Assembly: GCA_965224245.1 (NCBI GenBank)
Contig: OZ245046.1
Span: 5,664,001-5,728,000 of the forward strand
Direction: 5' to 3'
DNA: 64,000 nucleotides
Source: Candidatus Eiseniibacteriota bacterium
Lineage (GTDB): Bacteria > Eisenbacteria > RBG-16-71-46 > CAZAMP01
Part shown: positions 1 through 15,771 of the stretch, piece by piece
How positions within the stretch are numbered: position 1 is the first letter of the stretch
How the letters are laid out: the number at the start of each line of letters is the position of its first letter
Program-made: the position numbers and the translations under genes
The notes under the pieces: model-generated
What the model was told of the DNA's origin: nothing
What the model saw: only the letters and a program-made list of their open reading frames with translations
Databases searched by the model: none

Positions 1-2
1 CG

Positions 3-308
3 GTGTCGAACTCCGGCCCGAAGGTCTTCGGCGATCCGGCGTCGGGATCCACGGTCGCGGCGGCGTTCGCGTCGGATCCGAGTGCGGCGGCGAAGGACGT
101 GGACGAGGAGCCGATCTTCACCGCGTCGCTCGACGACGTCACGTCCAGCGTCCAGGTGCTCGACGGTCCGCGGATCTCGAACCGGGGCGGCATCGGCTCG
201 CCGAACAACGGCCTCCTGGTGGACACGACGTACGCCATCGGCCCGCAGTTCTACACGCCGGTCGCGAGCTTCGACGCCACGGTGACGTTCACGCTGGCCA
301 CCCCCTAG
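3..308 (+). CDS. Putative pilin/fimbrial-like subunit A (3' part; runs off the left edge of the window)
   Basis: Open from the window edge. Shares DPSxxAKxxDxEPxF and A[IV]GPQ[FY][YF]TP motifs with the next ORF and ends in an alternating beta-strand (FDATVTFTLATP). Confidence 0.6.
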   Translation: MSNSGPKVFGDPASGSTVAAAFASDPSAAAKDVDEEPIFTASLDDVTSSVQVLDGPRISNRGGIGSPNNGLLVDTTYAIGPQFYTPVASFDATVTFTLATP

Positions 309-312
309 CGCG

Positions 313-1095
313 ATGTCTCGACAGGTCCCTCCCAGGGGCGCGCGCGGCGCGCCCCCGCGATCGAGGCATCCGATCGCCGACGGTTCCCATCCGAGGAGCC
401 CCGGACCGCGCACGTCGCGGGGCCGGGGCCTCGTGCGTTTCGGCGCCGTCGTGCGCCGGGCGCTCTGGTGCACGGCGATGCTCGGGCTCTGGGGCACGAG
501 CGTCGCGGTCGCGGAGCTGGGCCCGGTCCTCGTGCTGCCCGAGCCTCCCGGTCCTCCCCCCAAGCCCCCGGCCGGCTTCGACGGCGAGATCGTCGTGCTG
601 CCCGATGACCTCGCCGAGACCGGGACCGCTCGGATCCCGCTCGGCACCGTCGAGCTGGGAGAGCTGACGCCGGGTGTCGGCGTGCCGTGGGTGCGCGAGG
701 AGACCACGATCGCGATCTACTCGCCGTTCGGGTACTTCCCCCGCTACCGGCTCACGGCCCGGTCGCTGACGCCGGCCGGAGGGCCCGTCGGCGCGTTCAC
801 GACGGCCGACATCGGCATGGGGATCACCGATCCGGTGGGGCGGGCGCCGCGGATCAACCCCGACTACGACTACGACCCGTCGACCGTGGCCAAGAACGCC
901 GACGACGAGCCGCTGTTCGTCGGCACGGTCCAGTCACTGGGTCCGTTCATTCCCGGCACCGAGATTCTCCGGATGCGCGGCTTCTACTGGGGCTCGTGGA
1001 ACTACTTCACGCTCATCTTCGCCGTCGGGCCGCAGTACTTCACCCCCGGACCCTCGCAGGTGGTCCAGCTGGAACTGGAGCTGATCCTCCTATGA
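313..1095 (+). CDS. Putative pilin/fimbrial-like subunit B, secreted (true start probably GTG 433 or ATG 478)
   Basis: Signal-peptide-like stretch (VRRALWCTAMLGLWGTSVAVA), Pro-rich linker, C-terminal half paralogous to the preceding ORF, terminal beta-strand VQLELELILL. Stop overlaps the next start (ATGA 1092-1095). Confidence 0.6.
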   Translation: MSRQVPPRGARGAPPRSRHPIADGSHPRSPGPRTSRGRGLVRFGAVVRRALWCTAMLGLWGTSVAVAELGPVLVLPEPPGPPPKPPAGFDGEIVVLPDDLAETGTARIPLGTVELGELTPGVGVPWVREETTIAIYSPFGYFPRYRLTARSLTPAGGPVGAFTTADIGMGITDPVGRAPRINPDYDYDPSTVAKNADDEPLFVGTVQSLGPFIPGTEILRMRGFYWGSWNYFTLIFAVGPQYFTPGPSQVVQLELELILL

Positions 1096-1964
1096 CGATC
1101 CCGACCCGTTTCGCGAGCGCCGTGGCGCTCGCCCTGGTGACGACCTCGGTCGCCGTCCCCGCCGCCCGGGCCGGCGACGTGTCGATCATCCCGAGCCTCG
1201 TCGAGGTGCGGGTTCCGCCGGGCGAGGACTTCACGACGCTCGTGGAGATCGTGTACGCCAAGAGCAACGACCAAGACGACATGCCGCTTCGCATCGTCCT
1301 GTCCACCGAGGACTGGGACATGAACGCCGAGGGACGGCTCTCATATGCAGTGCCCGACAGCCTCCCGGAATCGGCCGCGTCGTGGGTCGTCTTCTCGCCG
1401 AGCGAGGCCGAGATCGTCCCCGGACAGATCATGCATGCGCGCATGTCGGTCATCGTGCCCGAGGACGCGCGGGGCGGCGAGTATCGCGCCGCGCTGATCG
1501 CCCAGCCGAGGCCGGCGTATCGGCCGCTCGAAGAGAATCAGAAGCGTCTCCAGTTTCGCTACCGCCTCGCGTCCACGATCTACGTGAGCGTGCCGCCGAT
1601 CGAGCACGAGCTGGATCTGGTCGGTCTGGACGTGGTCGCCGATCGCGGGCGGTGGGCGGTGGTTCCGTCCTTACGGAACGACGGCGGAGAGCACGCCCGT
1701 ATCGTCGACTCGTTCGAGGTGCTGCCGATCGAGAACCCGCTCCTGGGGAGCGCATACGTGAAGCAGACCGAGGAGGCGGGGGTCGTGCTGCCGGGACGAC
1801 TGCGCCGACTCCGACACTGGCTGCCGGAGTACCTCGAGCCCGGTGCCTACCGCATCGTGTACGAGGCCGACGCGGGAGATCCCTACCCCCTGATGGTGGG
1901 GGAGAGCACGTTCGAGATCCCGGGTCCCGACGACGTCCCGACGGTCGTCGCCACCCGGGACTGA
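1092..1964 (+). CDS. PapD-like/fimbrial chaperone-like periplasmic protein
   Basis: Signal peptide (MTIPTRFASAVALALV...ARA), then VSIIPSLVEV, WVVFSPSEAEIVPGQ, VPEDARGGEYRAAL, RLASTIYV, and a second Ig-like domain (LRNDGGEH...VVLPG...LEPGAY). Translationally coupled to the upstream gene. Confidence 0.65.
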   Translation: MTIPTRFASAVALALVTTSVAVPAARAGDVSIIPSLVEVRVPPGEDFTTLVEIVYAKSNDQDDMPLRIVLSTEDWDMNAEGRLSYAVPDSLPESAASWVVFSPSEAEIVPGQIMHARMSVIVPEDARGGEYRAALIAQPRPAYRPLEENQKRLQFRYRLASTIYVSVPPIEHELDLVGLDVVADRGRWAVVPSLRNDGGEHARIVDSFEVLPIENPLLGSAYVKQTEEAGVVLPGRLRRLRHWLPEYLEPGAYRIVYEADAGDPYPLMVGESTFEIPGPDDVPTVVATRD

Positions 1965-2010
1965 CGGTGGTGTGCCGCCGCGATCCGATCCGACCGGTGC
2001 GGCGGGCACG

Positions 2011-3594
2011 CTAGTCCGGATCCGCCGAGCGCGCGGAGAAGGCGAGCGCGGCCGCCGTCCAGACGAACGGCAGCAGCGGCATCACGTAGCGCCTGAGAAC
2101 GAGATGACTCCAGGCAACCGCGAATCCACAGGCGATCGCGAACGCGAAGATCAGGATCGCGATCCGGCGCGCCCGCCGCGCGTCCGGGCCCGCCGGACGC
2201 GTGAACGCGGCGCACAGGATGACCGCGGCGACCGCCCAGCTCACCATGGCCCACGGGGCGTAGAGCTTCCGGAGAGCGGCCATCGGGTCGCCGTGGCGCG
2301 GCGTCCACTCGGTGGTGTGCTGTCCGGGCCAGAAGGCGGTGATGGAGCCGTCCGGATGCTCGCGGTACGTGTACCGGCCGTGCGCCACGGGAGAGGTCGG
2401 TACGAAGACCCGTGCGAAGCTCGGCAGCACGAACGTCCGCAGATACGTTCCCAGGTTCTGCGCGATCCACTCGTGCGTGAACGACCGGAAGAGCTCGTTC
2501 ACGAGAATGAACGCGTTTCGGTACTGCAGCGCGAACGCGGGGAGAGCCGGGTTCGTCCGGTTCCGGTGCTCGACGAAGTACCGCTGAGCCGGCGTCGTCG
2601 GTACCTTCGCCTCGCGGATGAAGCCCGTCAGGAACCGACGATAAGGCTCCACGTCCTTCGGTTCGGGCTCGTAGCGGGGCCAGAAGGCTCGCAGCAACCG
2701 TTTCGCGGGTGATCTGCGATTCCAGCGATGCCAGTTCGAGTCGTGGTCGGGTCGGATCGACGATGGGTACGCGGTGAGGAACTCGGCGACCAGACGGGCC
2801 TCTGGGTCGAGGAAGTCTTCGGGGGCCAGCTCGTCGAGGTGAGGCGCAATGTTGCCGTAGAGGGCCCAGCCGTCGAACGTGGTCGGGCGAAAGCGTCCGA
2901 GGCTCCAGTCCACGTGCGCGCTGATCGCCAGGATGCTGGCCGAGGACACGAGCACGACCATGCCGGCACGACGGGCACGGCTCGCATGCGACGGCGCACG
3001 CCACACCACGGTGGCGGCCAGCAACGCCGGATTGGCGAGGCCCACGAACCGGAGGAACATCGTCGACACCGACAGCGCGAGCGCGCCGGCGAACCACCGT
3101 CTCGTCGGGGAGTCGACGTACGCGAGAATCGTGGCCAGGAAGCCGATCGTCTGCGCCGTATAGACGGTATCGGCGATCAGGAAGTGATCGAGGTACCACG
3201 CGTGGGGATCGAACGCGATCAGCGCTCCGGCCGCAACCGCGACCTCCCGGCGAACGCGCTGGTGGCGGTGAAGCACCCACGTCAGTCCGAGCGACGCGAT
3301 CAGCCGAAGCAGAGCGGCCAGCACGACCGACACCGTCGGCGTCGGCGAGAACACGCGGGTGGCGGCCAGGTATAGCGAGTAGCCGATCGGCTTGTACGGG
3401 TTCGCCTTCAACGACTCGGCCGACAACACGTACTCCTCGCTGTCGCCGACGAGATAGGGATGAGGGTACAGGTAGACCTGGAGGAGCTTGAGCAGCACGA
3501 ACGCCACCGTCATCCAGACGAGCGGGGTGACGAGCGAGCCGGCGGGGCTGCCTGACGATCGCTCGCCTCGACGGGAGTGTCCGGCGCTCGTCAT
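2011..3594 (-). CDS. Polytopic membrane protein, probable GT-C fold glycosyltransferase
   Basis: Many TM helices; acidic first loop (GDSEEY) and YKPIGYSLYLA motif typical of PMT/ArnT-like enzymes; large extracytoplasmic loop; C-terminal RRYVMPLLP. Confidence 0.6.
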   Translation of the reverse strand: MTSAGHSRRGERSSGSPAGSLVTPLVWMTVAFVLLKLLQVYLYPHPYLVGDSEEYVLSAESLKANPYKPIGYSLYLAATRVFSPTPTVSVVLAALLRLIASLGLTWVLHRHQRVRREVAVAAGALIAFDPHAWYLDHFLIADTVYTAQTIGFLATILAYVDSPTRRWFAGALALSVSTMFLRFVGLANPALLAATVVWRAPSHASRARRAGMVVLVSSASILAISAHVDWSLGRFRPTTFDGWALYGNIAPHLDELAPEDFLDPEARLVAEFLTAYPSSIRPDHDSNWHRWNRRSPAKRLLRAFWPRYEPEPKDVEPYRRFLTGFIREAKVPTTPAQRYFVEHRNRTNPALPAFALQYRNAFILVNELFRSFTHEWIAQNLGTYLRTFVLPSFARVFVPTSPVAHGRYTYREHPDGSITAFWPGQHTTEWTPRHGDPMAALRKLYAPWAMVSWAVAAVILCAAFTRPAGPDARRARRIAILIFAFAIACGFAVAWSHLVLRRYVMPLLPFVWTAAALAFSARSADPD

Positions 3595-3852
3595 CGCGCA
3601 CCACGCGGTGCGCCGTCCGCCGCGGCGCGCGAGCGTCTGTCCCGGTCGTCGACGACGTCGTCGATCCAGGCGAGCGCGGGCATCGAGCGGGCCATGGGAC
3701 GTCCCCTGGTGAGTCACGGTGAATGAATGATGGGGGGATCGTGCGAGCTTACCCTGCGAGGCCGTCGAAGGGAACCCGTGGCCCGGTTCACGGCGTGGAT
3801 ACGATGCTCGGAATACGAGCATCGTATCCGGGGACCATCCTGGTGGTGCCGA

Positions 3853-4083
3853 CTAGCCCAGCACCTCGACCAGCGCCTTCCGATGATGCTTGCTGCCCAC
3901 GGCGGCGACGATCGTCCGGAGCGCTTCGAGGTTCCGGCCGTGCTTGCCGATGATCAGCCCCATGTCTTCCTTGGCCACCGACAGCTCGTAGATGGTCAGC
4001 GATTGACTCGAGATCTCACGCACGGAGACGCTGTCGGAGTTGTCGACGAGCTCGCGGGCCATGTTCTCGATCAGAGACTTCAT
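3853..4083 (-). CDS. khpA: KH domain RNA-binding protein KhpA (76 aa)
   Basis: MKSLIENMARELVDNSDSV...YELSVAKEDMGLIIGKHGRNLEALRTIV: classic KhpA/YlqC with the IIGKxG KH loop. Confidence 0.9.
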   Translation of the reverse strand: MKSLIENMARELVDNSDSVSVREISSQSLTIYELSVAKEDMGLIIGKHGRNLEALRTIVAAVGSKHHRKALVEVLG

Positions 4084-4433
4084 GAGTCGCGTCCTTTTGC
4101 CGGGACGACGGGACGTCATCCTCGATTGCAGTGTCGGGTACGTGTCGGTTCGCGGCTCGTCGTGGCACGTGTGCGACGACGAGCGTGTCACGCATGCGGA
4201 AGGCGACCGGGAGCCGGAGGATTCCGCGTCGACCAGCAGTCGCGAACCGGTCTCCGGATCGGAATCGCGCGCCCGCGCGTCACACGGATCTTGATCGACC
4301 GACCCCCGCACGATGTTTCGCGAAAAGGGAACGTGCTCGGGACGGCCGGCCGCTCCGGAACCGGGGTCAGCCGTCGAGCCGTCCGCCTTCTGGCGATCGA
4401 CTGCTCGATCGGGCGCGAGGCCTCGGGGGCGCG

Positions 4434-6890
4434 CTAGAACCGTTTCCGGACGACCGCGCGGGGCCGTGGCACCACCCCGACCTGGATCCCCGTGACGTCG
4501 CGAGTCACCGGCACGTCCACCTGCATCGTGGCCGGCGCGATCAGCTCGCCGGGGAGCGACGCCGGCGCGATCTGGAGGGCGTGCCGTCCCGGGGGCACGT
4601 CTCCGAGCCGGAACGAGCCGTCCGGGCTCGAGAGCGTGTTGGAGCCCCCCGCGATGAACACGAGCGCATCGGACACGACCGGCTCGTCGGTGTCGTGCCG
4701 GTCGTTTCCGTTCACGTCGACGAACACGATGCCGGTCACGCGGCGGTTCACGCACGCGCGGAAGTCGATCCGTGCCCGGGTCAGGGGCCCGATCGTCACG
4801 TCGCCCGACAGTGCGCCGAGCACCGAGAGGTCCGCCCGCAGCGTGGTCGCCTCCACGGTCACGTGGTGGCGGCCCGGGGCGAGCGACTCGAACGCGTATC
4901 GTCCCTCGCGGTCGGTCTCACGCCGGTCCATGCCGCGATCCAGCGTGACCACGATGCCGCGCAGCGGCCGCTCGCCCTCGTCGTAGCGCCCGTTCAGGTT
5001 CGTGTCGACGTAGATGCGACCTTCGATCGCGACCGGTCGGTTGCGGCCGGCGGCATCGTCCATGCCCGCGTGCCGGAGCCGATCCTCGTCCAGCACGAAG
5101 CGTCCGCGCCAGTCCGCGCGCGTGAGATGTCCGACCTGCTGCTGATCCACGGCGATGCTGGCCCCGTGATCGCCCGAGGCGTAGCCGATGCGGATGCGCG
5201 CGGTGAAGCCTCGCTGCTCGTCCACGAATGTGCGCGTCCATCGGCCGCCGACGGTCATCGAGAGGCCCCCGAGCATGCGGACCGGTGGCGACCAGTCTGC
5301 CGACGCTCCGGCGAAGCGATGATCGCTCCACGACGTCGCGAGCTGAGCTCGACCGGCGCGGGTGTCGACGAGGAGACCGGCGGAGGCGAAGAACGCATCG
5401 GAGCCGCTCAGCCGTCGTCGCATCGATCCGTACCACTTGCCGATCGGCAGCCGTCCCCGGAGGTCCAGCGAGAGGTCGGTACGTGTCGAGGTTCGGCCGA
5501 GATCGGCGATCGACAGCGTGGCGACCGCGGACTGGAGCGCCGGATGTGACGGGGTCCACGCGGTCGCCGCATCGTAGAGCCGGTCCGTCGACCGGAGGAC
5601 CGGGTCGTAGTGCAGCGAGTGCGACGCGCCCAGCGACACGCGCTCGGACAGGCGGCGGTTCGCACCCAGCGTGTAGAACGACGAGCCGTCCTCGGCGAAC
5701 ACCGACGCGCGCTGGAACGCGGTGCCGAAGTGCCCCGCGCGCACGCGGAGCGCCGTGTCGTCCTCCGGTGACCACTGCGCGTGGAGCTCGATCGCCTCGC
5801 GATCGGCGAGGTCGTGTCCGGGGCTGACGAACGCGCCGCCCTCCACGCGGGTCAGCCATCGCTCTCGCCGCGCCTCGTGACGCACGCCGACGAGCATGCC
5901 CTCGCGCCGGGACGCCCCGCGTCCGATCCAGGACGCCCCGACATCGAGGGCGTCGGCCGCCGTCGGCTCGTCTCGCAGGCGCCAGCCCATCGACACCGTA
6001 CCCACGTGCTCGTCGAAGCGAGGTCCCACGAAGTTGCTCCGGGCGCCGGTGAATCCGGACGAGAGCTGCACGTAGCTGGCCGACAGCCGCCGGGCGCCGC
6101 CGTTCAGCTCCAGATCGGCGCCGATGCCACGGCCGTGCGCGCGTAGCCACGACATGCGCGTGTCTCCGCGGAGGTCGCCCAGCATCACCCGACTCCCGGC
6201 TCCGGAATCGAGCTGGGTCAGGAAGGTGTTCAGATGAGCATGCTGTGCATCGGTGTACCGCCCGTCCAGCCGCGTCGACAGGAGCCCCGTCCGGACGCGG
6301 GTCCGGTTCTCGAGCGTGAGCGCGCCGTTGACCACGTCGCCGCGCTCGACCGCGTTGCCGTGGTAGCGGACCTCCTGCACGCCGATGGCCGGAAGCTCCG
6401 CGCGGAGCTGCTCGGGATCCAGCGGATTGGACGTGACGATGAGGGCGTCGGTCAGCGCATCGACCCGGATCGTTACCCCGAAGAGGATCGATGCCAGCTC
6501 GATCGGGACCCGGAGATCGCCCTCGTGCGTGCCGACCGGCAGCCCGGGCGCCAGACGGCTGCCGATGGCGAAGTCCCGGCTGACCTCGCCGGTCAGCCCG
6601 TCGTAGTACGCGGTCACCCCCTGCGACGGGATCGACACCGAAACCGATCGCGAGTAGCTCTCGAACACGACGGTGGCGCCCAGCGTCTGGGCGATCGGAC
6701 GCGTGGGCACCAGCCAGACGTCACCCCGCCGCTCGGGCGCATGTCCCGGGGTCACGATCGTCTCGCCGTCGATCACGAGGCCGGGAACGGTCTCGGCCCG
6801 CACGATCGGTGCGCTCCAGGCGAGCGCCATCAGCGCGAGAATCGCGACCACGCCGCGCGTGTTCCGGCCCGGGCTCGTGTCGATCCGCAT
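4434..6890 (-). CDS. Large outer-membrane protein, non-canonical usher-like (N-terminal stalk domain, central beta-barrel-like region, two C-terminal SdrD-B/carboxypeptidase-regulatory-like domains)
   Basis: Signal peptide; N-domain LVPTRPIAQTLGATV / LRVPIE (copper-amine-oxidase-N-like); amphipathic beta-strand-rich middle; two repeats GRIYVDTNLNGRYDEGE...GRYAF..L.PG.H and GIVFVDVNGNDRHDTDE...GSFRL..VPPGRH. Confidence 0.6.
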   Translation of the reverse strand: MRIDTSPGRNTRGVVAILALMALAWSAPIVRAETVPGLVIDGETIVTPGHAPERRGDVWLVPTRPIAQTLGATVVFESYSRSVSVSIPSQGVTAYYDGLTGEVSRDFAIGSRLAPGLPVGTHEGDLRVPIELASILFGVTIRVDALTDALIVTSNPLDPEQLRAELPAIGVQEVRYHGNAVERGDVVNGALTLENRTRVRTGLLSTRLDGRYTDAQHAHLNTFLTQLDSGAGSRVMLGDLRGDTRMSWLRAHGRGIGADLELNGGARRLSASYVQLSSGFTGARSNFVGPRFDEHVGTVSMGWRLRDEPTAADALDVGASWIGRGASRREGMLVGVRHEARRERWLTRVEGGAFVSPGHDLADREAIELHAQWSPEDDTALRVRAGHFGTAFQRASVFAEDGSSFYTLGANRRLSERVSLGASHSLHYDPVLRSTDRLYDAATAWTPSHPALQSAVATLSIADLGRTSTRTDLSLDLRGRLPIGKWYGSMRRRLSGSDAFFASAGLLVDTRAGRAQLATSWSDHRFAGASADWSPPVRMLGGLSMTVGGRWTRTFVDEQRGFTARIRIGYASGDHGASIAVDQQQVGHLTRADWRGRFVLDEDRLRHAGMDDAAGRNRPVAIEGRIYVDTNLNGRYDEGERPLRGIVVTLDRGMDRRETDREGRYAFESLAPGRHHVTVEATTLRADLSVLGALSGDVTIGPLTRARIDFRACVNRRVTGIVFVDVNGNDRHDTDEPVVSDALVFIAGGSNTLSSPDGSFRLGDVPPGRHALQIAPASLPGELIAPATMQVDVPVTRDVTGIQVGVVPRPRAVVRKRF

Positions 6891-7201
6891 CGTGCGGTGG
6901 ATCCCCCTCGTGGGCGTTTCCGGAGGCGAACACGCCGGAACGTGCCGCGCGCGGGCGTTTCACGTTCCATGGGCCGCGCCGCACCGGGGCGCGGACGGTA
7001 ACGGAGCTCGGCTCGTGGGCAAGAGCGAGGCCGCCGACGCGGCGAGGGCGATCACGTGACATGGAGCTGCACGGTCGTAACGATCGGGCCGGCGCGGCGC
7101 CATCTTTAAGCATTTGCAACGTCCTAGGGCGCTGTCAGAATACGCGGTGACCAGAACCAGGTTCGCATTCGTGACGCACTCGCGCCGCCACAGGAGGTCA
7201 C

Positions 7202-8635
7202 GTGGCCACACGCAAAGCCAGGGCCGAAGATCTGAACTTCAAGAACGTCGTCGACCGGCAGTTCGATCGCGCGACCCGATTCCTGAAGCTCCCGGAGGGT
7301 CTCGTCCAGTCGATCAAGGTCTGCAACAACGTGTACTACGTGCAGTTTCCCGTGAAGTTCGGTAAGCGGTACCAGATCTTCGAAGGATGGCGAGCCGAGC
7401 ACAGCCACCACAAGAAGCCGCTGAAGGGCGGCATCCGCTACTCGCGAATGGTGGAGCAGGACGAGGTCATCGCGCTCGCGGCGCTGATGACGTACAAGTG
7501 CGCCATCGCGAACGTCCCGTTCGGGGGCTCGAAGGGCGGGGTCAAGCTTCGACCCCGCGACTACACGCCCGACCAGCTGGAGAAGGTCACCCGTCGCTTC
7601 ACTGCCGAGCTGATCAACAAGCGTTTCATCGGCCCGGGGATCAACGTGCCGGCGCCCGACTACGGCACCGGCGAGCGAGAGATGGCGTGGATCGCCGACA
7701 CCTACGATGCGTTCCACGCCGGTGAGCTCGACAACATGGCCTGCGTCACCGGCAAGCCCGTGAGCCAGGGCGGAATCCGCGGACGCAGCGCGGCCACGGG
7801 GCGGGGCGTCGTGTTCGGGCTGCGAGAGTTCTTCCAGCACAAGAAGGACGTGGTCGCGGCCGGCCTCTCGGGCACGCTCGAGGGCAAGCGGGTCTCGGTC
7901 CAGGGCTTCGGCAACGTCGGGTTCCACGTGGCGAACATCCTCGCGCGAGAGGACGGCGCCAGGATCGTCGCCGTCGGCGAGTACGACGGCACGGCGTACG
8001 ATCCGGACGGTCTCGACCTCGCCAAGCTGGAGCGGCACTTCAGATCCAAGCGCTCCATCCGGGGTTTCCCCGGCGCCAAGACGCTGCCGACGGGGCTCGA
8101 CTGCCTGGAGGTGGACTGCGACGTGCTCGTGCCCGCCGCGCTCGAGCATCAGATCACCCTCGCCAACGCCAGGAAGGTCAAGGCCCGCGTGATCGCCGAG
8201 GCGGCCAACGGGCCCACGACGCCCGAGGCCGAAGCCCTCCTGATGAAGCGCGGGGTCTGGATCCTGCCCGACATCTACCTCAACGCGGGTGGGGTGACGG
8301 TCTCGTACTTCGAGTGGAGCAAGAACATCTCGCACATGCGTCTGGGCCGCATGGAGAAGCGACGCGACGAGGCGGTCTCGCGCCAGCAGGTGCAGGAGAT
8401 CGAGAAGCTCGTCGGGCGCAAGTTCCCGTCCGAGGTGCGTCGGAAGATGATGATCGGCGGCAACGAGGAGGATCTCGTCAACTCGGGGCTCGAGGAGACG
8501 ATGGTCACCGCGTACAACGAGATCCGCGACACGAGAAAGCGCCATCGCGGCGTCGAGGATCTCCGGACCGCCGCCTTCATCTGCGCGATCCAGAAGATCG
8601 CCGAGAGCTACCTGGCGCTCGGGATCTTCCCCTGA
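7202..8635 (+). CDS. gdhA: Glu/Leu/Phe/Val dehydrogenase (glutamate dehydrogenase)
   Basis: PLKGGIRYS, MTYKCA..VPFGGSKGGV, VPAPDYGT, VTGKP..GG, VQGFGNVG, EAANGP, NAGGVTVSYFEW. AGGAGG RBS before the GTG. Confidence 0.95.
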   Translation: MATRKARAEDLNFKNVVDRQFDRATRFLKLPEGLVQSIKVCNNVYYVQFPVKFGKRYQIFEGWRAEHSHHKKPLKGGIRYSRMVEQDEVIALAALMTYKCAIANVPFGGSKGGVKLRPRDYTPDQLEKVTRRFTAELINKRFIGPGINVPAPDYGTGEREMAWIADTYDAFHAGELDNMACVTGKPVSQGGIRGRSAATGRGVVFGLREFFQHKKDVVAAGLSGTLEGKRVSVQGFGNVGFHVANILAREDGARIVAVGEYDGTAYDPDGLDLAKLERHFRSKRSIRGFPGAKTLPTGLDCLEVDCDVLVPAALEHQITLANARKVKARVIAEAANGPTTPEAEALLMKRGVWILPDIYLNAGGVTVSYFEWSKNISHMRLGRMEKRRDEAVSRQQVQEIEKLVGRKFPSEVRRKMMIGGNEEDLVNSGLEETMVTAYNEIRDTRKRHRGVEDLRTAAFICAIQKIAESYLALGIFP

Positions 8636-8709
8636 TCGGGCCCTCGTGAGCGCGGTGCCCGCCCGCTCGCGGGCACCGACGGCCGGGGCGGTCGGCCGGG
8701 ACGGCGCGG

Positions 8710-10752
8710 TCAGCGCAGCCGGAGCTCGAGCCGGATCCGCCGCCCGGGGGCCGGCAGGCCCCACGCGTCGTAGAGCGCGACGTCGCCCAGGTTGTCCACG
8801 GCGATCCGCGCCTCGGCGCTGGAGAAGGTACCTGCGCCCCAGGACACGCGTACCGGCCAGGATCGGGAGACCGATGCGGAGAGGATCGCCTCGGCATCCA
8901 GCTCGACGCTGTCGCCGGTGATGCCGTCGATCACGCTCTGATCCCCGGTGTACGAGACGCCGACGCTGCCCACCGCGCCGGCGGCGATCGGGAACCGCGC
9001 GCGGGCATCTCCGAACGCGGACGGCAGGTTCTCCGGCCGCGTGGTGTCGTCCGTCTCGGTGTCGGTCAGATCCACCGACTGAAGCGTGGCGTTGGCCGAC
9101 AGCTCGATGCGCCCGAGGCGATGGGCCCCGATGAGCTCGAGCCCCGTGCTCGTCAGCTCGTTCCGGTTCACGCGCATGAACTTCCCCGTGCCGTCGTCGA
9201 GGAGCACGCGCACCACGGCGTCCTCCAGGAGCGTGTGGAACACGACGAGCTGGGCCGATCCGTCGCCGACGCGCGAGCTGATTCCCGCCTCGGTGGTCAG
9301 CAGCTTCTCGGGCTCGAGGTCGGGGTTCGGCACGAATCGATCGAGTGCGCCGGAGTAGAGCTCGCGGAGCGCCGGGAACCGGCCCCGCCGGCTGACCCCG
9401 GCGTGCACCACGGCCCGACCCATCACGGCCGAGAGGCCGGCGCGCGCACCCAGCTCGGACAGCGGTTCCTGGGTGTCGCGGCCACCCGCCTCGGGCGTGG
9501 CGGCACGATCGTAGGCGGCTCCCACGCTGAACGAGAGGGCGTCGACGGCTCCGAAGCCGTCGGTGCGCCAGACGTTCTCGACGCCGACGCTGCTGATCTC
9601 CTGGCGGTAGCGAGCGTCGCCTTCGGGAAGGCTCTCGTCGTGGCGAATGCCCGACCACGTGAACGCACCGCGCAGCATTCCGCGGCGTCCGAGCGTCTGA
9701 TCGGCGAGGAGGCGCAGCGTCACCGTCCGGTCCTCGCCGTCGTCGAAGCCGACGACCTCGTCGTACGCACGGGTGGCATAGGCGTCGATGTCGGTCCGGC
9801 CGCGATCGTATCCGACGCTCAGCTCCAGGTCGCCGCGGCCGCCGAACGGTGAGCGCCGGAGGCCGGTACCGCCCGAGAGCACCGCCAGCGTTCGGGACAC
9901 GCTCGGGTAGCGCCACAGTCGGGCGTCCTCGTCGGGCACTCCGAGCTCGGCGGCGATGCCACGCTCCTCGTCGAACGAGGATCCCGAGAACGAGAGCCAC
10001 GCGCCGCCGGGCGTGTCGTAGCGCAGCGCGACGAATCCGTTGACGTTGCGGAGGTCGGTGTTGAGGCGGAGGTCGTCCTTGGTCCGGACCGGCTCGCGGA
10101 TGCCGTCGGCCAGGGGCTCGCCGTCTCGGTCGCGAAAGCCGACCCCGGCCCGGGCCAGCCAGCTCCCGGAGCGCGACTCGAACGGGATCGACGTCGTGAC
10201 CGTGGTCCCGAACGCACCGGTGTCGTCCGCGCCGGTGGTGATCTCGAGCCGTCTCTCGGGGGATCGCGCGCGAGCGTCACCGACCCGGACCTCGACGACG
10301 CCGCCGAGCACGTTGGGCCCGTGCAGCATCGACGAGAGCCCTCGCGTGAACGTGACGTCCTCCAGAGCCGTGGCCGGGATGACCGAGACGTCGGCACGTG
10401 CGTCCCACGCCAGGGTGATCGGTACCCCGTCCACCAGCACTGCGACCTGACGCGACTCGGATCCTCTCGCGGAGATCTCGGCCTCGCCGCGAGAGTTCGT
10501 CCGGACGTGCAGCATCGGCAGCTCGCGAAGGACGTTCTCGAGCGAGGCCGCCGCCGGCACCGGCAGCGAGTCCAGCTCCGCCTCGACGGCGCTGGCGCCG
10601 CCGATGGTGGTCACCGCGCGGGGTGCCTGTACCACGACCTCTTCGCCGGTGTAGATCGGCTTCCGGTCGGAGTCGTCTGGGGCGTTCTCCGTGGCGGAGC
10701 CGTCGAACCCGATCAGACACACGATCGAGGCGTAGAGAGCCGAGCGTTGCAT
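8710..10752 (-). CDS. TonB-dependent receptor
   Basis: TonB-box-like EEVVVQA, plug motifs (ISARGS...VAVLVDGVPI; GLSSMLHGPNVLGGVV), barrel motifs R.P.L.ELY and NPDLEPE, terminal PGRRIRLELRLR. Confidence 0.9.
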   Translation of the reverse strand: MQRSALYASIVCLIGFDGSATENAPDDSDRKPIYTGEEVVVQAPRAVTTIGGASAVEAELDSLPVPAAASLENVLRELPMLHVRTNSRGEAEISARGSESRQVAVLVDGVPITLAWDARADVSVIPATALEDVTFTRGLSSMLHGPNVLGGVVEVRVGDARARSPERRLEITTGADDTGAFGTTVTTSIPFESRSGSWLARAGVGFRDRDGEPLADGIREPVRTKDDLRLNTDLRNVNGFVALRYDTPGGAWLSFSGSSFDEERGIAAELGVPDEDARLWRYPSVSRTLAVLSGGTGLRRSPFGGRGDLELSVGYDRGRTDIDAYATRAYDEVVGFDDGEDRTVTLRLLADQTLGRRGMLRGAFTWSGIRHDESLPEGDARYRQEISSVGVENVWRTDGFGAVDALSFSVGAAYDRAATPEAGGRDTQEPLSELGARAGLSAVMGRAVVHAGVSRRGRFPALRELYSGALDRFVPNPDLEPEKLLTTEAGISSRVGDGSAQLVVFHTLLEDAVVRVLLDDGTGKFMRVNRNELTSTGLELIGAHRLGRIELSANATLQSVDLTDTETDDTTRPENLPSAFGDARARFPIAAGAVGSVGVSYTGDQSVIDGITGDSVELDAEAILSASVSRSWPVRVSWGAGTFSSAEARIAVDNLGDVALYDAWGLPAPGRRIRLELRLR

Positions 10753-10878
10753 GCAGGTCGTCCTCTCGGTTGGGTATCGCGTTCGTCGGTCGCGCCGGGC
10801 GCCCCGCACACGGACCGGACGTGTCGTACGGCGGCACTGCCGGTCGTTCCGATGACGCCCGCATGTGCCGAGTGAGAG

Positions 10879-12807
10879 CTAGCCGCCGCCGAGTCTCCGG
10901 CGTGCACGGTCGATCCACGGCGTCACGCGGGCCTTCTCGGTCCGGGGAGCCTGTGACTCCGCCCGGCGAAACGCCTCGAGCGCGTCGCGGTACGCACCGA
11001 TCGCCAGCGCGCGCCGCCCTTCGAGGATGGCGACGCGGTAGTCGCCGGGGGAGGCGCGTCTCGCGCCCGCGACCGCCGCGTCGAACCCATCCCAGTCGTT
11101 CGTGGCGCCGCGAGCTTCGGCGAGCCGGAGCCAGGATAGCACGCGTGTCGAGTCCAGCGTGACCGCGCGTTCGAACGCGAGCGCGGCGTCCTTCCAGCGG
11201 TTCATGACGACGTACGTCTCTCCGAGCCCGTGATGCGCCTCGGGATCGCCCGGGGTCAGCGCCACCGACCGCAGCTGCATCTCGAGCATGTTGGCCACCT
11301 GCATCTCACTCGAGTGCAGGATCGAGTCGGAACGTGCCTGCCAGCGCTCGATCATCGTGCCGAGCGGCGTGGGCTCGAACTCGCGCGTCTCGGGCGCGGT
11401 CCCCGCATCGTCGCCCATGACGTAGCCCAGCGACATCAGGCGCCGGCGCATGTCCTCGTCGATGGCCTCGGCGTGCTGCGGAGCGGCGTGGGCGGCCACG
11501 CGTTCCGTCAGCTCGAACTGCAGCTCGGCGGCGGCGCGAGGCATCTCCGAGACCGTCGGCGGTGCATCGCCGGCGAGCAGGTTCTTCCGCTCGTCCCGAT
11601 CCCGCGCGAGGTCGTAGTACTCGGGCCACGGGGCATCGATGAACTTGTCGCCGTGGCGGCGAAGCGCGTGGATCGGCGCCCAGCCGTGCATGAGGTGGGG
11701 CCAGAGGGTCTCCAGGTACACCGTTCGCGGCTCGTCCGGTGGCGGGTCGAGGAGCGAGAGTGCCTCGCCGGACGTGTCGTGAGTCATGCCGAGCAGGTCG
11801 AGCACGGTGGGGAACACGTCGCACGTCGTGACCACGCGGCCCGACAGCGTGGCCGGTGCATTCATCGCGTTGCCCGGGACGAGTATCAGGGGCACGTGCA
11901 TGGTCGATTCGTACACGAGGTGCGCGTGAGTCCGCTCGCCGTGCTCGCCGAGCCCCTCGCCGTGATCGGCGGTGACCACGATCAGCGTCCGGTCGCCGAC
12001 TCCACCGGAGTCCAGCGCGGCCAGGAGGCGGCCCAGCTCCCGATCCACGAACGCGATCTCGCCGTCGTACGGGGCGTCCGCGAACGACGCGTCGAACGGG
12101 CTCGGTGGCGCGTACGGATCGTGGGCGTCGAAGTAGTGCACCCACACGAAGAACGGCTGGCGATCGATCATGTCGATCACGTTCGAGTTCAGCCACGAGA
12201 GCGCGGCGTCGGTGACGCGGTCGGCCGGGCGCTCCGCGGAGCCGCGCTGGGCCCGCGGGTCGTCGGAGAGCTGATCGTCGTACACGTCGAAGCCCTGCGC
12301 GAGCCCGCGGCTCCGCTCGAGCACCGACGCGGCCACGAAGGCCGCCGTGGCGTAGCCCGCCCCGGACAGTCGCTCGGCCAGCGTGGTCACCCGATCGTCG
12401 AGATGGTGCACGCCGTTCAGGCGGACCCCGTGATCGGGCGGAACGAGTCCGGTGAAGAGGCTGGCGTGTGCCGGCAGCGTGATCGGCACCGGCGTGACGG
12501 CGTCGGTCACGCGAACGCCGCGTCCGGCGAGGCCGTCGATCACCGGGGTCTCGGCGGCGCGATACCCGTAGCAGCCGAGGTGATCGGCGCGCACGGTGTC
12601 CAGCGTGACCACGAGCACGTTGTATCCCTGGAGCGCCCCGCGCGCGATCGGCATCGCGCTCACCTCGCGTCCGGGCGGCGTCGACTCGTCGCACGACACC
12701 AGCGCCCAGGCCGACACGGCCAGCGCCACCACCGAGACGGCGCGCGATCCCGGCGCGTCCGGCGAAGCCGGCCGGCTCGGCCGCGCGGGGTTCCGGCTCC
12801 ACCACAT
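10879..12807 (-). CDS. Sulfatase-like hydrolase with C-terminal TPR repeats (probable lipoprotein)
   Basis: NVLVVTLDTVRADHLGCYGY, TLPAHASLFTG, FFVWVHYFDAHDPY, YDGEI, VTADHGE, H...YE....VPL; TPR-like C-terminus; lipobox-like LVSC. Start approximate. Confidence 0.85.
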   Translation of the reverse strand: MWWSRNPARPSRPASPDAPGSRAVSVVALAVSAWALVSCDESTPPGREVSAMPIARGALQGYNVLVVTLDTVRADHLGCYGYRAAETPVIDGLAGRGVRVTDAVTPVPITLPAHASLFTGLVPPDHGVRLNGVHHLDDRVTTLAERLSGAGYATAAFVAASVLERSRGLAQGFDVYDDQLSDDPRAQRGSAERPADRVTDAALSWLNSNVIDMIDRQPFFVWVHYFDAHDPYAPPSPFDASFADAPYDGEIAFVDRELGRLLAALDSGGVGDRTLIVVTADHGEGLGEHGERTHAHLVYESTMHVPLILVPGNAMNAPATLSGRVVTTCDVFPTVLDLLGMTHDTSGEALSLLDPPPDEPRTVYLETLWPHLMHGWAPIHALRRHGDKFIDAPWPEYYDLARDRDERKNLLAGDAPPTVSEMPRAAAELQFELTERVAAHAAPQHAEAIDEDMRRRLMSLGYVMGDDAGTAPETREFEPTPLGTMIERWQARSDSILHSSEMQVANMLEMQLRSVALTPGDPEAHHGLGETYVVMNRWKDAALAFERAVTLDSTRVLSWLRLAEARGATNDWDGFDAAVAGARRASPGDYRVAILEGRRALAIGAYRDALEAFRRAESQAPRTEKARVTPWIDRARRRLGGG

Positions 12808-13020
12808 GCTCACGACGCTCACGAACGACGGCAACGGTGCGTCCTCCAGTCGGGGTCCAGGGACGGGCAGTCTACCAGGATCGCGGCCGAAGTCCGGACA
12901 ATCGCACGAGGCCCGCCGTCCGGATCGGGGCCACGGTTGCCGCGCCGAGCCCGAGCGGGTACTGTCATGTTGCGATGAAACGGTATCTCCACGGCGTCGA
13001 AAGACAGCGGAGGACGCCTC

Positions 13021-15771
13021 ATGTTCGATCAGTTCAAGCAACAGCTTCCCGACATCGACCCGATCGAGACCCAGGAGTGGCTGGAGTCTCTCGAGTCGGT
13101 GATTCAGCAGTCGGGCGCCAAGCGCGCGCAGTACCTGATGTACAAGCTCCTGAAGGCCGCGCGCATGCGGAACGTCGGCCTGCCGCCGACCACACAGACC
13201 CGCTACATCAACACCATCAGTCCCGAGCAGGAGCCCACGTTCCCCGGAGACGAGGACATGGAGCGGCGCATCCGGCGTCTCATCCGCTGGAACGCGGCCG
13301 CGATGGTCATCCGGGCCAACCGCCGTTTCGACGGACTCGGCGGACACCTGTCGACCTATGCCTCGGCCGCGACGTTGCTGGAGGTCGGGTTCAATCACTT
13401 CTTCCGGGGCAAGGATCATCCCGGCGGTGGGGACCAGATCTACTTCCAGGGCCACGCCGCGCCGGGCATCTACGCCCGCGCGTTCCTGGAAGGTCGTCTG
13501 TCGGAATCGCAGCTCGATCGGTTCCGGCGCGAGACCGGCGGGGGCGGGCTCTCGAGCTATCCGCACCCGCGGCTGATGCCCGAGTTCTGGGAGTTTCCGA
13601 CCGTGTCGATGGGACTGGGACCGATCAGCGCGATCTACCAGGCCCGGTTCAATCAGTACCTCCATGCCCGGGGCATCGCCGACACGTCACAGAAGCGCGT
13701 GTGGGCGTTTCTGGGTGACGGCGAGTGCGACGAGCCCGAGGCGCTGGGCGCGCTCACACTCGCGGCGCGTGACGGCCTCGACAACCTCACGTTCGTCGTG
13801 AACTGCAACCTCCAGCGACTCGACGGTCCGGTGCGTGGCAACGGGAAGATCATCCAGGAGCTGGAGGCGGTGTTCCGCGGCGCCGGCTGGAACGTGATCA
13901 AGGTGATCTGGGGCCGCCAGTGGGATCCGCTGCTCGCCAGGGACCGCCGCGGTGTGCTCGAGCAGAAGATGATGGACACGCTCGACGGCGACTATCAGCT
14001 CTACTCGGTCGAGGACGGCGCCTTCATCCGCAAGCACTTCTTCGGTCCCGATCCGGAGCTCGCGCGCCTCGTCGAGGACCTGTCCGACGAGGACATCAAG
14101 CGGCTGCGCCGCGGCGGCCACGACTATCGAAAGATGTACGCGGCGTACAAGCGTGCCACCGAGACCGTCGGGCAGCCCACCGTGATCCTGGCCAAGACCG
14201 TCAAGGGGTGGACGCTGGGCCCGGGCGTCGCCGGACGCAACGTCACGCATCAGAAGAAGAAGCTGGAGGACGATCAGCTCAGGACGTTCCGCGATCTCCT
14301 CGAGCTGCCCATCCCCGACGATCAGCTGGACGACCTCCCCTTCCATCACCCCGGTCCGAAGTCGGACGAAGTGCGCTACCTCATCGAGCGGCGGCGGGCG
14401 CTGGGCGGCTTCGTCCCCACGCGACACGCTCGCGCCAAGACGCCGATCTCGCCCCCGGCGGACTCGGTGTTCACCGAGTTCCTGGCGGGCACCAAGGCGA
14501 ACGTCGAGGCCTCCACGACGATGGCCTACGTCCGGATGCTGCGGAAGATCATGAAGGACCCGGCGCTCGGGCGTCGGGTGGTTCCGATCATTCCCGACGA
14601 GGCGCGCACGTTCGGGATGGATCCGCTGTTCGCCGAGTTCGGCATCTACGCGTCGCAGGGGCAGAAGTACACGCCGGTCGACGCGGACTACGTGATGAAG
14701 TACCACGAGGCCGCCGACGGGCAGATCCTCGAGGAGGGGATCACCGAGGCCGGCGCGCTGTGCGACTTCACCGCGGCCTCCACGTCGTACGCGACGCACG
14801 GCGAGCCGACGGTGCCGTTCTACATGTTCTACTCGATGTTCGGCTTCCAGCGGGTCGCAGACCTGATCTGGGCGTGTGCCGATCAGCGCGGTCGGGGCTT
14901 TCTCCTCGGTGCCACGGCCGGCCGCACGACGCTGATGGGCGAGGGGCTCCAGCACGACGACGGCCAGAGCCACGTCATGGCCTCGGTCGTGCCGTCGGTG
15001 CACGCGTACGATCCGGCCTACGCATTCGAGGCGGCCATCATCACCCGCGAGGGCCTTCGCCGGATGCTGGACGAGAACGAGGACGTCATCTACTACATCA
15101 CCCTCTACAACGAGGCGTACACGATGCCCGCGATGCCCGAGGGAGCGTCCGAGGGCGTGCTCAAGGGGCTCTATCGATTCCGCGAGGCGCCGACGGGCAA
15201 GCACCGCGTGCGCCTTCTGGGAAGCGGTCCCATTCTGAACGAGACACTGCGCGCCGCCGAGATGCTGGCCGAGGGCTACGACGTGGCCGCCGAGGTCTGG
15301 AGCGCGACCAGCTACTCCGAGCTCCGGCGAGACGCGCTCGAGGTGGATCGTTGGAATCGCCTGCATCCGGGCGAGGAGGCGCGAAAGCCGTACGTGACCG
15401 AGTGTCTCGGCGGCGAGGACTCCCCGATCGTCTGCGCGTCGGACTACATGAAGACGATGCCGGACATGATCGCGAAGTGGGTGCCGGAGACCTTCATCGC
15501 GCTCGGAACCGATGGGTTCGGGCGAAGCGACACGCGTCAGTCGCTCCGGCGCTTCTTCGAGGTCGACGCGGGACACATCGTGGTGGCGGCGCTGTCCGGG
15601 CTCTGTCGCGCCGGCGCGGTGAAGGCGTCGGTCGTCCAGAAGGCGATGAAGACGCTCGAGATCGATCCGGACTCCAGGGCGCCCGAGAGTCGTGACCTCG
15701 GTGAGCAGGTCGTCGAGAAGACGAACGGCGCCCGAGGCCGCCGGTCTCGGCGAAAGGCGCCGTCCCGGTAG
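13021..15771 (+). CDS. aceE: Pyruvate dehydrogenase E1 component, homodimeric type
   Basis: DIDPIETQEWLESL, GGHLSTYAS, YPHPRLMPEFWEFPTVSMGLGP, GDGECDEPE, NLQRLDGPVRGNGKIIQELE, LGTDGFGRSDTR. Confidence 0.97.
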   Translation: MFDQFKQQLPDIDPIETQEWLESLESVIQQSGAKRAQYLMYKLLKAARMRNVGLPPTTQTRYINTISPEQEPTFPGDEDMERRIRRLIRWNAAAMVIRANRRFDGLGGHLSTYASAATLLEVGFNHFFRGKDHPGGGDQIYFQGHAAPGIYARAFLEGRLSESQLDRFRRETGGGGLSSYPHPRLMPEFWEFPTVSMGLGPISAIYQARFNQYLHARGIADTSQKRVWAFLGDGECDEPEALGALTLAARDGLDNLTFVVNCNLQRLDGPVRGNGKIIQELEAVFRGAGWNVIKVIWGRQWDPLLARDRRGVLEQKMMDTLDGDYQLYSVEDGAFIRKHFFGPDPELARLVEDLSDEDIKRLRRGGHDYRKMYAAYKRATETVGQPTVILAKTVKGWTLGPGVAGRNVTHQKKKLEDDQLRTFRDLLELPIPDDQLDDLPFHHPGPKSDEVRYLIERRRALGGFVPTRHARAKTPISPPADSVFTEFLAGTKANVEASTTMAYVRMLRKIMKDPALGRRVVPIIPDEARTFGMDPLFAEFGIYASQGQKYTPVDADYVMKYHEAADGQILEEGITEAGALCDFTAASTSYATHGEPTVPFYMFYSMFGFQRVADLIWACADQRGRGFLLGATAGRTTLMGEGLQHDDGQSHVMASVVPSVHAYDPAYAFEAAIITREGLRRMLDENEDVIYYITLYNEAYTMPAMPEGASEGVLKGLYRFREAPTGKHRVRLLGSGPILNETLRAAEMLAEGYDVAAEVWSATSYSELRRDALEVDRWNRLHPGEEARKPYVTECLGGEDSPIVCASDYMKTMPDMIAKWVPETFIALGTDGFGRSDTRQSLRRFFEVDAGHIVVAALSGLCRAGAVKASVVQKAMKTLEIDPDSRAPESRDLGEQVVEKTNGARGRRSRRKAPSR

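Follow-up and report, generated by a model that had tools for sequence, protein, structure and literature searches.

Can a double-membraned bacterium of an uncultured lineage assemble a donor-strand fibre from parts that match none of the known pilus families? Donor-strand pili are textbook machines of Proteobacteria. The question is raised by four genes at the start of a 64,000-nucleotide stretch of a Candidatus Eiseniibacteriota genome (hereafter the window; G000:C1:5664001-5728000; regional GC ~70%), where an operon for two paralogous secreted proteins (A and B) and a two-domain periplasmic protein (C) faces a convergent gene for an 818-residue usher-like outer-membrane protein (P818). An earlier reading of the bare sequence, here called the original prediction, had proposed a divergent fibre-assembly system at this place. 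Our analysis indicates that A, B, C and P818 probably constitute a chaperone-plus-pore fibre system of a double-membraned bacterium. The system is not an ordinary one, as none of its parts falls in an annotated family and no published account describes the combination.

A compact operon for two paralogous candidate subunits

All four open reading frames exist as originally described, and they are genuine genes rather than chance products of a 70% GC genome, because A, C and P818 each have relatives. Fourteen kilobases of upstream sequence revealed that the first frame is the tail of a full-length gene with a signal peptide, starting 378 bases upstream of the window; beyond it lies a divergent cyclophilin gene. 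The B frame opens four bases past the A stop codon, and the proposed translational coupling of B to C was borne out by an ATGA stop/start overlap at positions 1092-1095. The paralogy suggested for A and B also held (BLASTP E 8e-9, 31% identity across 120 residues).

The A family numbers 73 members including the query, in records labelled Gemmatimonadota, Candidatus Eisenbacteria and Acidobacteriota, these being the labels of the records that hold the relatives. Identity to A is 50-82% save for the weakest match (31%), mean column identity in an alignment of 44 relatives is 61%, and the most conserved parts include the mature N-terminus (QSTGTVxVxGxV), encoded upstream of the window, and the C-terminus (ATVTYTxxTP). 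Because it is very conserved and stands first in the operon, A is likely the major subunit; B is a putative minor, adaptor or base subunit. After the signal peptide, B homologues carry a conserved amphipathic strand with the consensus (Q/E)xExxIVLPEP, which reads ELGPVLVLPEPP here; the linker behind it varies and is frequently rich in proline.

Scans against the whole of Pfam and NCBIfam assigned no family to A or B, fimbrial-subunit and SCPU families included, and across the parts they returned no pilus-family match, in keeping with the earlier remark that nothing here resembles a textbook FimA, PapC or CsuA sequence. WxL (PF13731) gave no Pfam match in A or B at E up to 10, and the A profile found no WxL chain in the PDB. 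Language-model features placed A nearest to clusters with SCPU (0.94; 14% of members) and WxL (0.92; 75%), which we treat as leads only. No LPxTG was seen on reading A, B and C, no pattern search having been made. The sole PDB match of the A profile, a nanobody at E 1.2, was rejected as chance.

C is modelled with a PapD-like shape and is related to WxLIP

The two Ig domains anticipated for C behind its signal peptide appear in the AlphaFold2 model as two beta-sandwiches set in an L, the form of a periplasmic chaperone, and 41 of the 50 structure-search rows were soluble periplasmic L-shaped two-Ig chaperones. At the profile level C aligned over its full length with WxLIP, seven orders of magnitude above the next match. 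Judged by sequence, C is homologous to WxLIP (DUF916 plus DUF3324) while being shaped like PapD, and its nearer kin is the Gram-positive WxLIP/ElrE family rather than PapD. The PapD-like chaperone of the original prediction therefore stands as a fold, and its family affiliation shifts to WxLIP/ElrE.

Family models registered little of this. The only Pfam or NCBIfam match of C was a weak one to NPCBM_assoc. PapD_N (PF00345) did not match C at E up to 10, was found below its cut-off in one of the 32 members of the wider C family (E 0.0063), and was absent from a scan of the host's own genome in which the positive control was detected in E. coli. PF06030 matched 8 of the 32 members, at best with E 1.7e-4 and 22 bits against a cut-off of 27.3, so that none passed, and PF11797 was not among the matches of the 32. 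A 2026 survey defines WxL chaperones by the Pfam cut-offs of these two models (bioRxiv 10.64898/2026.10.17.759780). WxLIP_PGBD had no match in the host genome, with controls detected in the expected named genomes. None of the 18 close C members, query included, has a C-terminal transmembrane helix (0/18); in the wider family a crude hydropathy threshold is exceeded in one of 32, by a segment containing charged residues.

A predicted donor-strand interface between C and A

Structure prediction of C (residues 28-290) with A (22-228) gave complex scores of 0.88, 0.88 and 0.87, whereas the highest-scoring of three controls stayed at 0.00; contact agreement between runs was at least 91% and partner pLDDT at least 81. 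Of 157 solved complexes 116 reach the mark used for such scores, as do 2 of 215 mismatched pairs, counts that are rough since own alignments were used. The closest residue pairs run from 153:219 and 154:220 up to 160:226; the numbering rises in both chains, so that in the model the last strand of A runs parallel to its partner, C strand 152-162, in which L, F, Y and L alternate. The first strand of C (28-36) also touches A residues 34-41, and A residues 22-33 lie outside the interface. The predicted geometry is that of donor-strand complementation, as reported for ElrE-ElrD and for chaperone-usher complexes, and thus of the type expected when the original prediction called for a chaperone:subunit model. 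C is, in our estimation, very likely a strand-donating chaperone of A and B.

The same model bears on two other explanations. C could be a permanent partner that holds A and B in a static periplasmic or surface complex, as in the older "platform" model of WxL clusters, with P818 serving as a membrane dock or unrelated to it. That the modelled interface is of chaperone:subunit kind only, that the operon holds no adhesin-like tip subunit, and that the accepted view of WxL clusters up to 2026 was of a static platform (PMC10599100; bioRxiv 10.64898/2026.10.17.759780) would all suit such a complex. We regard it as distinctly unlikely, because the N-terminal strands rank with the best-conserved segments of A and of B, that of A being left outside the chaperone interface as a donor strand would be, and because polymerisation has been demonstrated experimentally in Enterococcus for the homologous chaperone family (bioRxiv 10.64898/2026.10.17.759780). 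The other explanation reduces the resemblance to common Ig-like and barrel architecture in proteins with an unrelated envelope function, for example substrate binding or uptake. Ig-like sandwiches and large barrels are indeed widespread folds, and the generic NPCBM_assoc has the highest Pfam member count on C-like proteins (19 of 32, all weak); the specific parallel strand geometry, the full-length WxLIP match with its margin over the next, and the recurrence of subunit, subunit, chaperone and pore genes together make this highly improbable.

P818 is modelled as a plug-less usher-like barrel

P818, described in the original prediction as a signal-peptide protein with a barrel-like core and two SdrD_B-like C-terminal domains, carries the signal peptide and ends in two CarboxypepD_reg/SdrD_B domains (Pfam E 3.5e-12 and 7.6e-11). 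Its model comprises an N-terminal domain, 26 consecutive strands over residues 170-599 with no inter-strand gap longer than 15 residues, and two C-terminal beta-sandwiches, which is the usher architecture of a large barrel with one N-terminal and two C-terminal domains. Full-length ushers, FimD or PapC, made up the 12 best Foldseek matches. The barrel of an usher has 24 strands and a plug; in P818 the barrel, its trailing sandwiches and the likeness to ushers came out as foreseen, and the plug that had also been foreseen did not. An exhaustive search, of which the best 150 of 3435 matches were taken, yielded about a dozen near-full-length, single-stretch relatives including the query; a word-index search with the core (residues 150-620) had returned only P818 itself.

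We also considered P818 as an MtrB-like cytochrome sheath. The MtrB sheath of MtrCAB (6r2q_B) shares 9% identity with P818, has neither its N-terminal domain nor its pair of C-terminal sandwiches, and gives no full-length alignment of the sort obtained with ushers. This candidate was rejected, as no cytochrome family was found among the genes scanned at positions 1-13665 and only ushers align over the full length.

The last 15 residues of P818 (window 4434-4480) and of its close and distant relatives share a short conserved motif, approximately (A)RP-x3-R-x2-F.

The four genes recur together in close relatives

All five species-representative loci that hold a C relative also hold A and B (5/5). 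A P818 homologue with 31-36% identity lies convergent and downstream in four of these, the contig of the fifth ending too early, and its distance from C ranges from ~50 bases (L004) to 8.3 kb (L008), with differing genes between. The host genome contains one copy of the system. Among 206 genomes of the phylum, A was found in three; the same three hold C at E 1e-92 or better and matches to both the N-terminal domain and the barrel of P818, and in them the pore gene is convergent at 2.5, 0.16 and 10.3 kb. The set is missing from the only other genome of the host's family (97% complete) and, in genus g8, from one genome (86% complete) of three. Because the same three genomes hold it and near relatives do not, the set is patchy and travels together. 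Co-localisation and co-occurrence of the four families in other genomes, which the original prediction had asked to be checked, were thus observed.

Sixteen metagenome loci were inspected, most of them too short to judge. Taking all close loci together, the P818 gene is linked, and always convergent, in 8 of the 10 with enough flank. Kin loci are not independent, and we therefore read these linkage counts as support, not as statistics. One metagenome locus (L039) has the order A, C1, A', B-like gene, C2, then a convergent P818.

Several variants were seen along the way. Three metagenome contigs of 56-59% GC (L031, L038 and L039) carry two chaperone and three subunit genes in the order A, C1, A', B-like, C2. 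Identity of this lower-GC branch to the window is 49-57% for A and only ~28-33% for the chaperones, so the fibre subunit is far more conserved than the chaperone. In another locus (L037:6331-12990, plus strand), three large open reading frames of 700-840 residues follow A-B-C in place of a P818 homologue. A gene with a similar C-terminus in 3 of 3 cases follows the P818 homologue immediately and shares its strand (L005:3259-4878, L006:13864-15450 and L008:10892-12916, all minus); the L006 copy matches HDOD (E 4.5e-34) and, weakly, an HD domain. This HDOD-type gene, a possible regulatory partner, does not occur in the window.

A wider family of chaperone-plus-large-protein loci

Beyond the close relatives, the C profile matched 43 of the 206 genomes of the phylum, and at 15 of 50 matched places search coordinates alone put P818-like C-terminal domains a few kilobases downstream on the same strand. 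We examined 18 distant paralogous loci from the same phylum (L009-L021 and L024-L028). A large protein is encoded on the same strand, next or near-next after the chaperone-like gene, in 16 of them (13 by the C-terminal domain-pair profile, three by coordinates), and in the 13 profile-matched loci the domain pair sits at the end of a protein of 700-1200 residues. The typical order is subunit, subunit, chaperone, large protein, all on one strand with overlapping or adjacent stops and starts (L013, L020, L025 and L026).

A barrel-only profile of the close P818 relatives matched none of the distant large proteins, in contrast to the domain-pair profile; as the latter is the only one to match, homology of the distant barrels to P818 is not shown. 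The subunits at these loci belong to another unannotated family of ~155 residues, with N-terminus ATSGTS... and C-terminus ...YTNTLTYTVVxQ, for which an hhalign comparison with the A family gave a probability of 47% and E 1.9e-4, partly via signal peptides. Language-model feature matches of the L013 large protein include SdrD_B clusters, again leads only. A tally of P818 parts, 65 of 206 genomes, includes the unpublished genome G072, on which nothing else rests.

The only PDB matches of the distant subunit profile (A4), MARTX fragments at E 0.28 or worse, were rejected as chance. Some distant large proteins have NPCBM_assoc or Ig domains at the start and DUF2914 at the end. A protein of ~180 residues that weakly matches outer-membrane barrel families (Opacity at E 8e-5; OMP_b-brl at E 1.6e-5, short of its cut-off) is encoded just downstream of the large protein in L025 (3442-3990, minus) and of the chaperone-like gene in L024 (3254-3796, plus).

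Does the fibre leave through P818?

Several observations weigh against a joint system of A, B, C and P818. The P818 gene lies 2.5 kb away from C on the other strand and is separated from it by two unrelated genes, and its close co-occurrence with the operon rests on three related genomes. Two of the ten loci with enough flank (L031 and L037) have no P818 homologue within 6.3 and 7.4 kb downstream of C, respectively. No plug is inserted in the modelled barrel, and PF00577 (Usher) did not match P818 at E up to 1; among 11 large proteins related to it, none gave a match at E up to 0.1. Compared by barrel only, P818 is most like MtrB, with OccK porins tying with FimD; its N-terminal domain gave no alignment to that of ushers, and its C-terminal domains are of the common SdrD_B kind. 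The C:A pass may itself partly reflect likeness to solved chaperone:subunit and WxLIP:WxL complexes.

Much of this would be expected if A, B and C made a chaperone-assisted, strand-swapped fibre or oligomer without P818, either periplasmic or leaving by another exit like the usher-less Elr and Pam systems, with P818 an unrelated gene kept by local synteny. A distance from C that varies from 0.05 to 10.3 kb, and published WxLIP-type systems that have no usher, point the same way. Yet a surface fibre of a double-membraned cell needs a pore, and the host genome holds no PF00577 usher, with the control detected in E. coli and Deinococcus. Among the 206 genomes of the phylum, the P818 type is confined to the three with A-B-C, and at 16 of the 18 distant paralogous loci an equivalent protein stands directly behind the chaperone on the same strand. 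We therefore judge a fibre independent of P818 to be unlikely. The preferred reading, a joint chaperone-plus-pore fibre system, agrees with the original prediction, whose proposal of divergent fibre assembly came through those of its own refuting tests that were run: the barrel, the chaperone interface and the co-localisation.

Proposed assembly pathway and comparison with known systems

In the joint system, Sec would export A and B to the periplasm with an incomplete fold. Soluble C would then cap each subunit, laying its strand ~152-165 into the groove beside the subunit's last strand, as the complex model predicts. The free, conserved N-terminal strand of the next subunit would displace the C strand and link the fibre, a step suggested by the sequence pattern and by analogy. 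The growing fibre would exit through the 818-residue outer-membrane barrel, whose periplasmic N-terminal domain and two C-terminal domains may receive chaperone:subunit complexes as an usher does, to go by fold, topology and gene linkage.

Elr WxL pilins of Enterococcus faecalis polymerise by donor-strand exchange, as cryo-EM and biochemistry showed, and are primed by ElrE, a membrane-anchored DUF916/DUF3324 chaperone, without an usher (bioRxiv 10.64898/2026.10.17.759780). That preprint reports the Elr/WxL system as confined to Bacillota in a screen of 4,698 genera, with a transmembrane helix in 96.7% of WxL chaperones. The present system shares its chaperone ancestry, as the WxLIP profile match shows, but differs on these points: the Elr/WxL host has a single membrane with sortase/LPxTG anchoring, whereas the present host has an outer membrane; the close C family lacks the membrane helix of the chaperone; an usher-like pore gene is linked here; neither Pfam nor a PDB sequence search gave a WxL match for A and B; and the C family stays below the PF06030 cut-off.

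With the classical and archaic chaperone-usher pili (Fim, Pap, Caf1, CFA/I and Csu), the likeness lies in a soluble L-shaped two-Ig chaperone, a donor-strand geometry that is predicted here, and, in the P818 model, a large outer-membrane barrel with an N-terminal domain and two C-terminal beta-sandwiches. No component, however, matches PapD_N or Usher in Pfam, NCBIfam or own-genome searches. P818 departs from ushers in its 26 DSSP strands, its missing plug, an N-terminal domain of Cu_amine_oxidN1 kind (a weak match) and SdrD_B-like C-terminal domains, and its gene is clustered but convergent, whereas the usher gene lies inside the operon.

The Pam pili of Candidatus Mycosynbacter amalyticus, of the candidate phyla radiation (CPR), consist of Ig-like pilins linked through donated strands, and chaperones resembling PapD/FimC are predicted to complement the fold of the pilin; the pilins have two domains and are reported to be exclusive to CPR (PMC13278184). 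Their chaperones are anchored in the membrane, and the host has neither an outer membrane nor a pore, the comparison with the present system being one of published description only (PMC13278184). Our literature searches, which did not extend to preprint supplements, returned no description of a WxLIP-type chaperone combined with an usher-like pore.

It is thus conceivable, though we hold this only tentatively, that the locus represents one branch of a third, undescribed donor-strand pilus lineage in double-membraned bacteria, in which a soluble chaperone sharing ancestry with WxLIP/ElrE works with a plug-less, 26-strand, SdrD_B-ended pore that does the work of an usher and is, by sequence, no homologue of PapC or FimD.

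Gene layout and neighbours

Three minus-strand genes run towards the A-B-C operon (Table 1). Two of them, for a membrane protein and for KhpA, were not found in the related loci compared and so look like insertions into the convergent gap; the third is P818. A scan for promoters and terminators returned zero sites. The TonB-dependent receptor beyond P818, together with the barrel model of P818, indicates that the host has an outer membrane.

Table 1. Positions in the window of the system's genes, their predicted parts and the adjoining genes
Feature	Position	Strand	Remarks
Subunit A, 3' part	1..308 (ORF 3-308)	+	whole gene G000:C1:5663622-5664308 = L003:13622-14308, 228 aa
A C-terminal strand, residues 215-228	264-305	+	
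Subunit B, A paralogue	313..1095	+	start codon uncertain
B conserved amphipathic N-terminal strand	~514-549	+	after signal peptide; then proline-rich linker and core domain
Candidate chaperone C, 290 aa	1092..1964	+	signal peptide, two Ig-like domains, no membrane anchor
C predicted donor strand, residues 152-165	1545..1586	+	alternating hydrophobics; pairs in parallel with A C-terminal strand in model
603-aa multi-pass membrane protein	2011-3822	-	without Pfam or NCBIfam match
KhpA	3853-4095	-	PF13083, E 4e-22
P818, usher-like outer-membrane protein, 818 aa, whole gene	4434..6890	-	
P818 C-terminal beta-sandwiches 1 and 2, residues ~621-714 and 716-808	4467..5030	-	SdrD_B / CarboxypepD_reg
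P818 barrel region, residues 170-599	5094..6383	-	26 DSSP strands, without inserted plug domain
P818 N-terminal alpha/beta domain, residues 37-153	6432..6782	-	weak Cu_amine_oxidN1, E 0.0019, below Pfam cut-off
Glutamate dehydrogenase	7202-8635		ordinary neighbour, no evident link to system
TonB-dependent receptor	8710-10809		ordinary neighbour, no evident link to system
Sulfatase with TPR repeats	within 10879-13665		ordinary neighbour, no evident link to system

Implications

In 2026, two usher-less versions of donor-strand assembly with membrane-anchored chaperones were described, Elr/WxL in Bacillota and Pam in CPR (bioRxiv 10.64898/2026.10.17.759780; PMC13278184). The locus analysed here would add, in an uncultured lineage with two membranes, a WxLIP-type chaperone joined to an outer-membrane pore of usher shape, and with four small genes the long-open matter of how chaperone-usher pili originated and how they relate to Gram-positive systems becomes testable. 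The plug-less pore raises the question of gating, and a second question concerns the consistently convergent placement of the pore gene in this branch. With related chaperone-plus-pore loci in at least 43 of the phylum's 206 genomes, this machinery may be a widespread, unannotated surface-fibre pathway of environmental bacteria.

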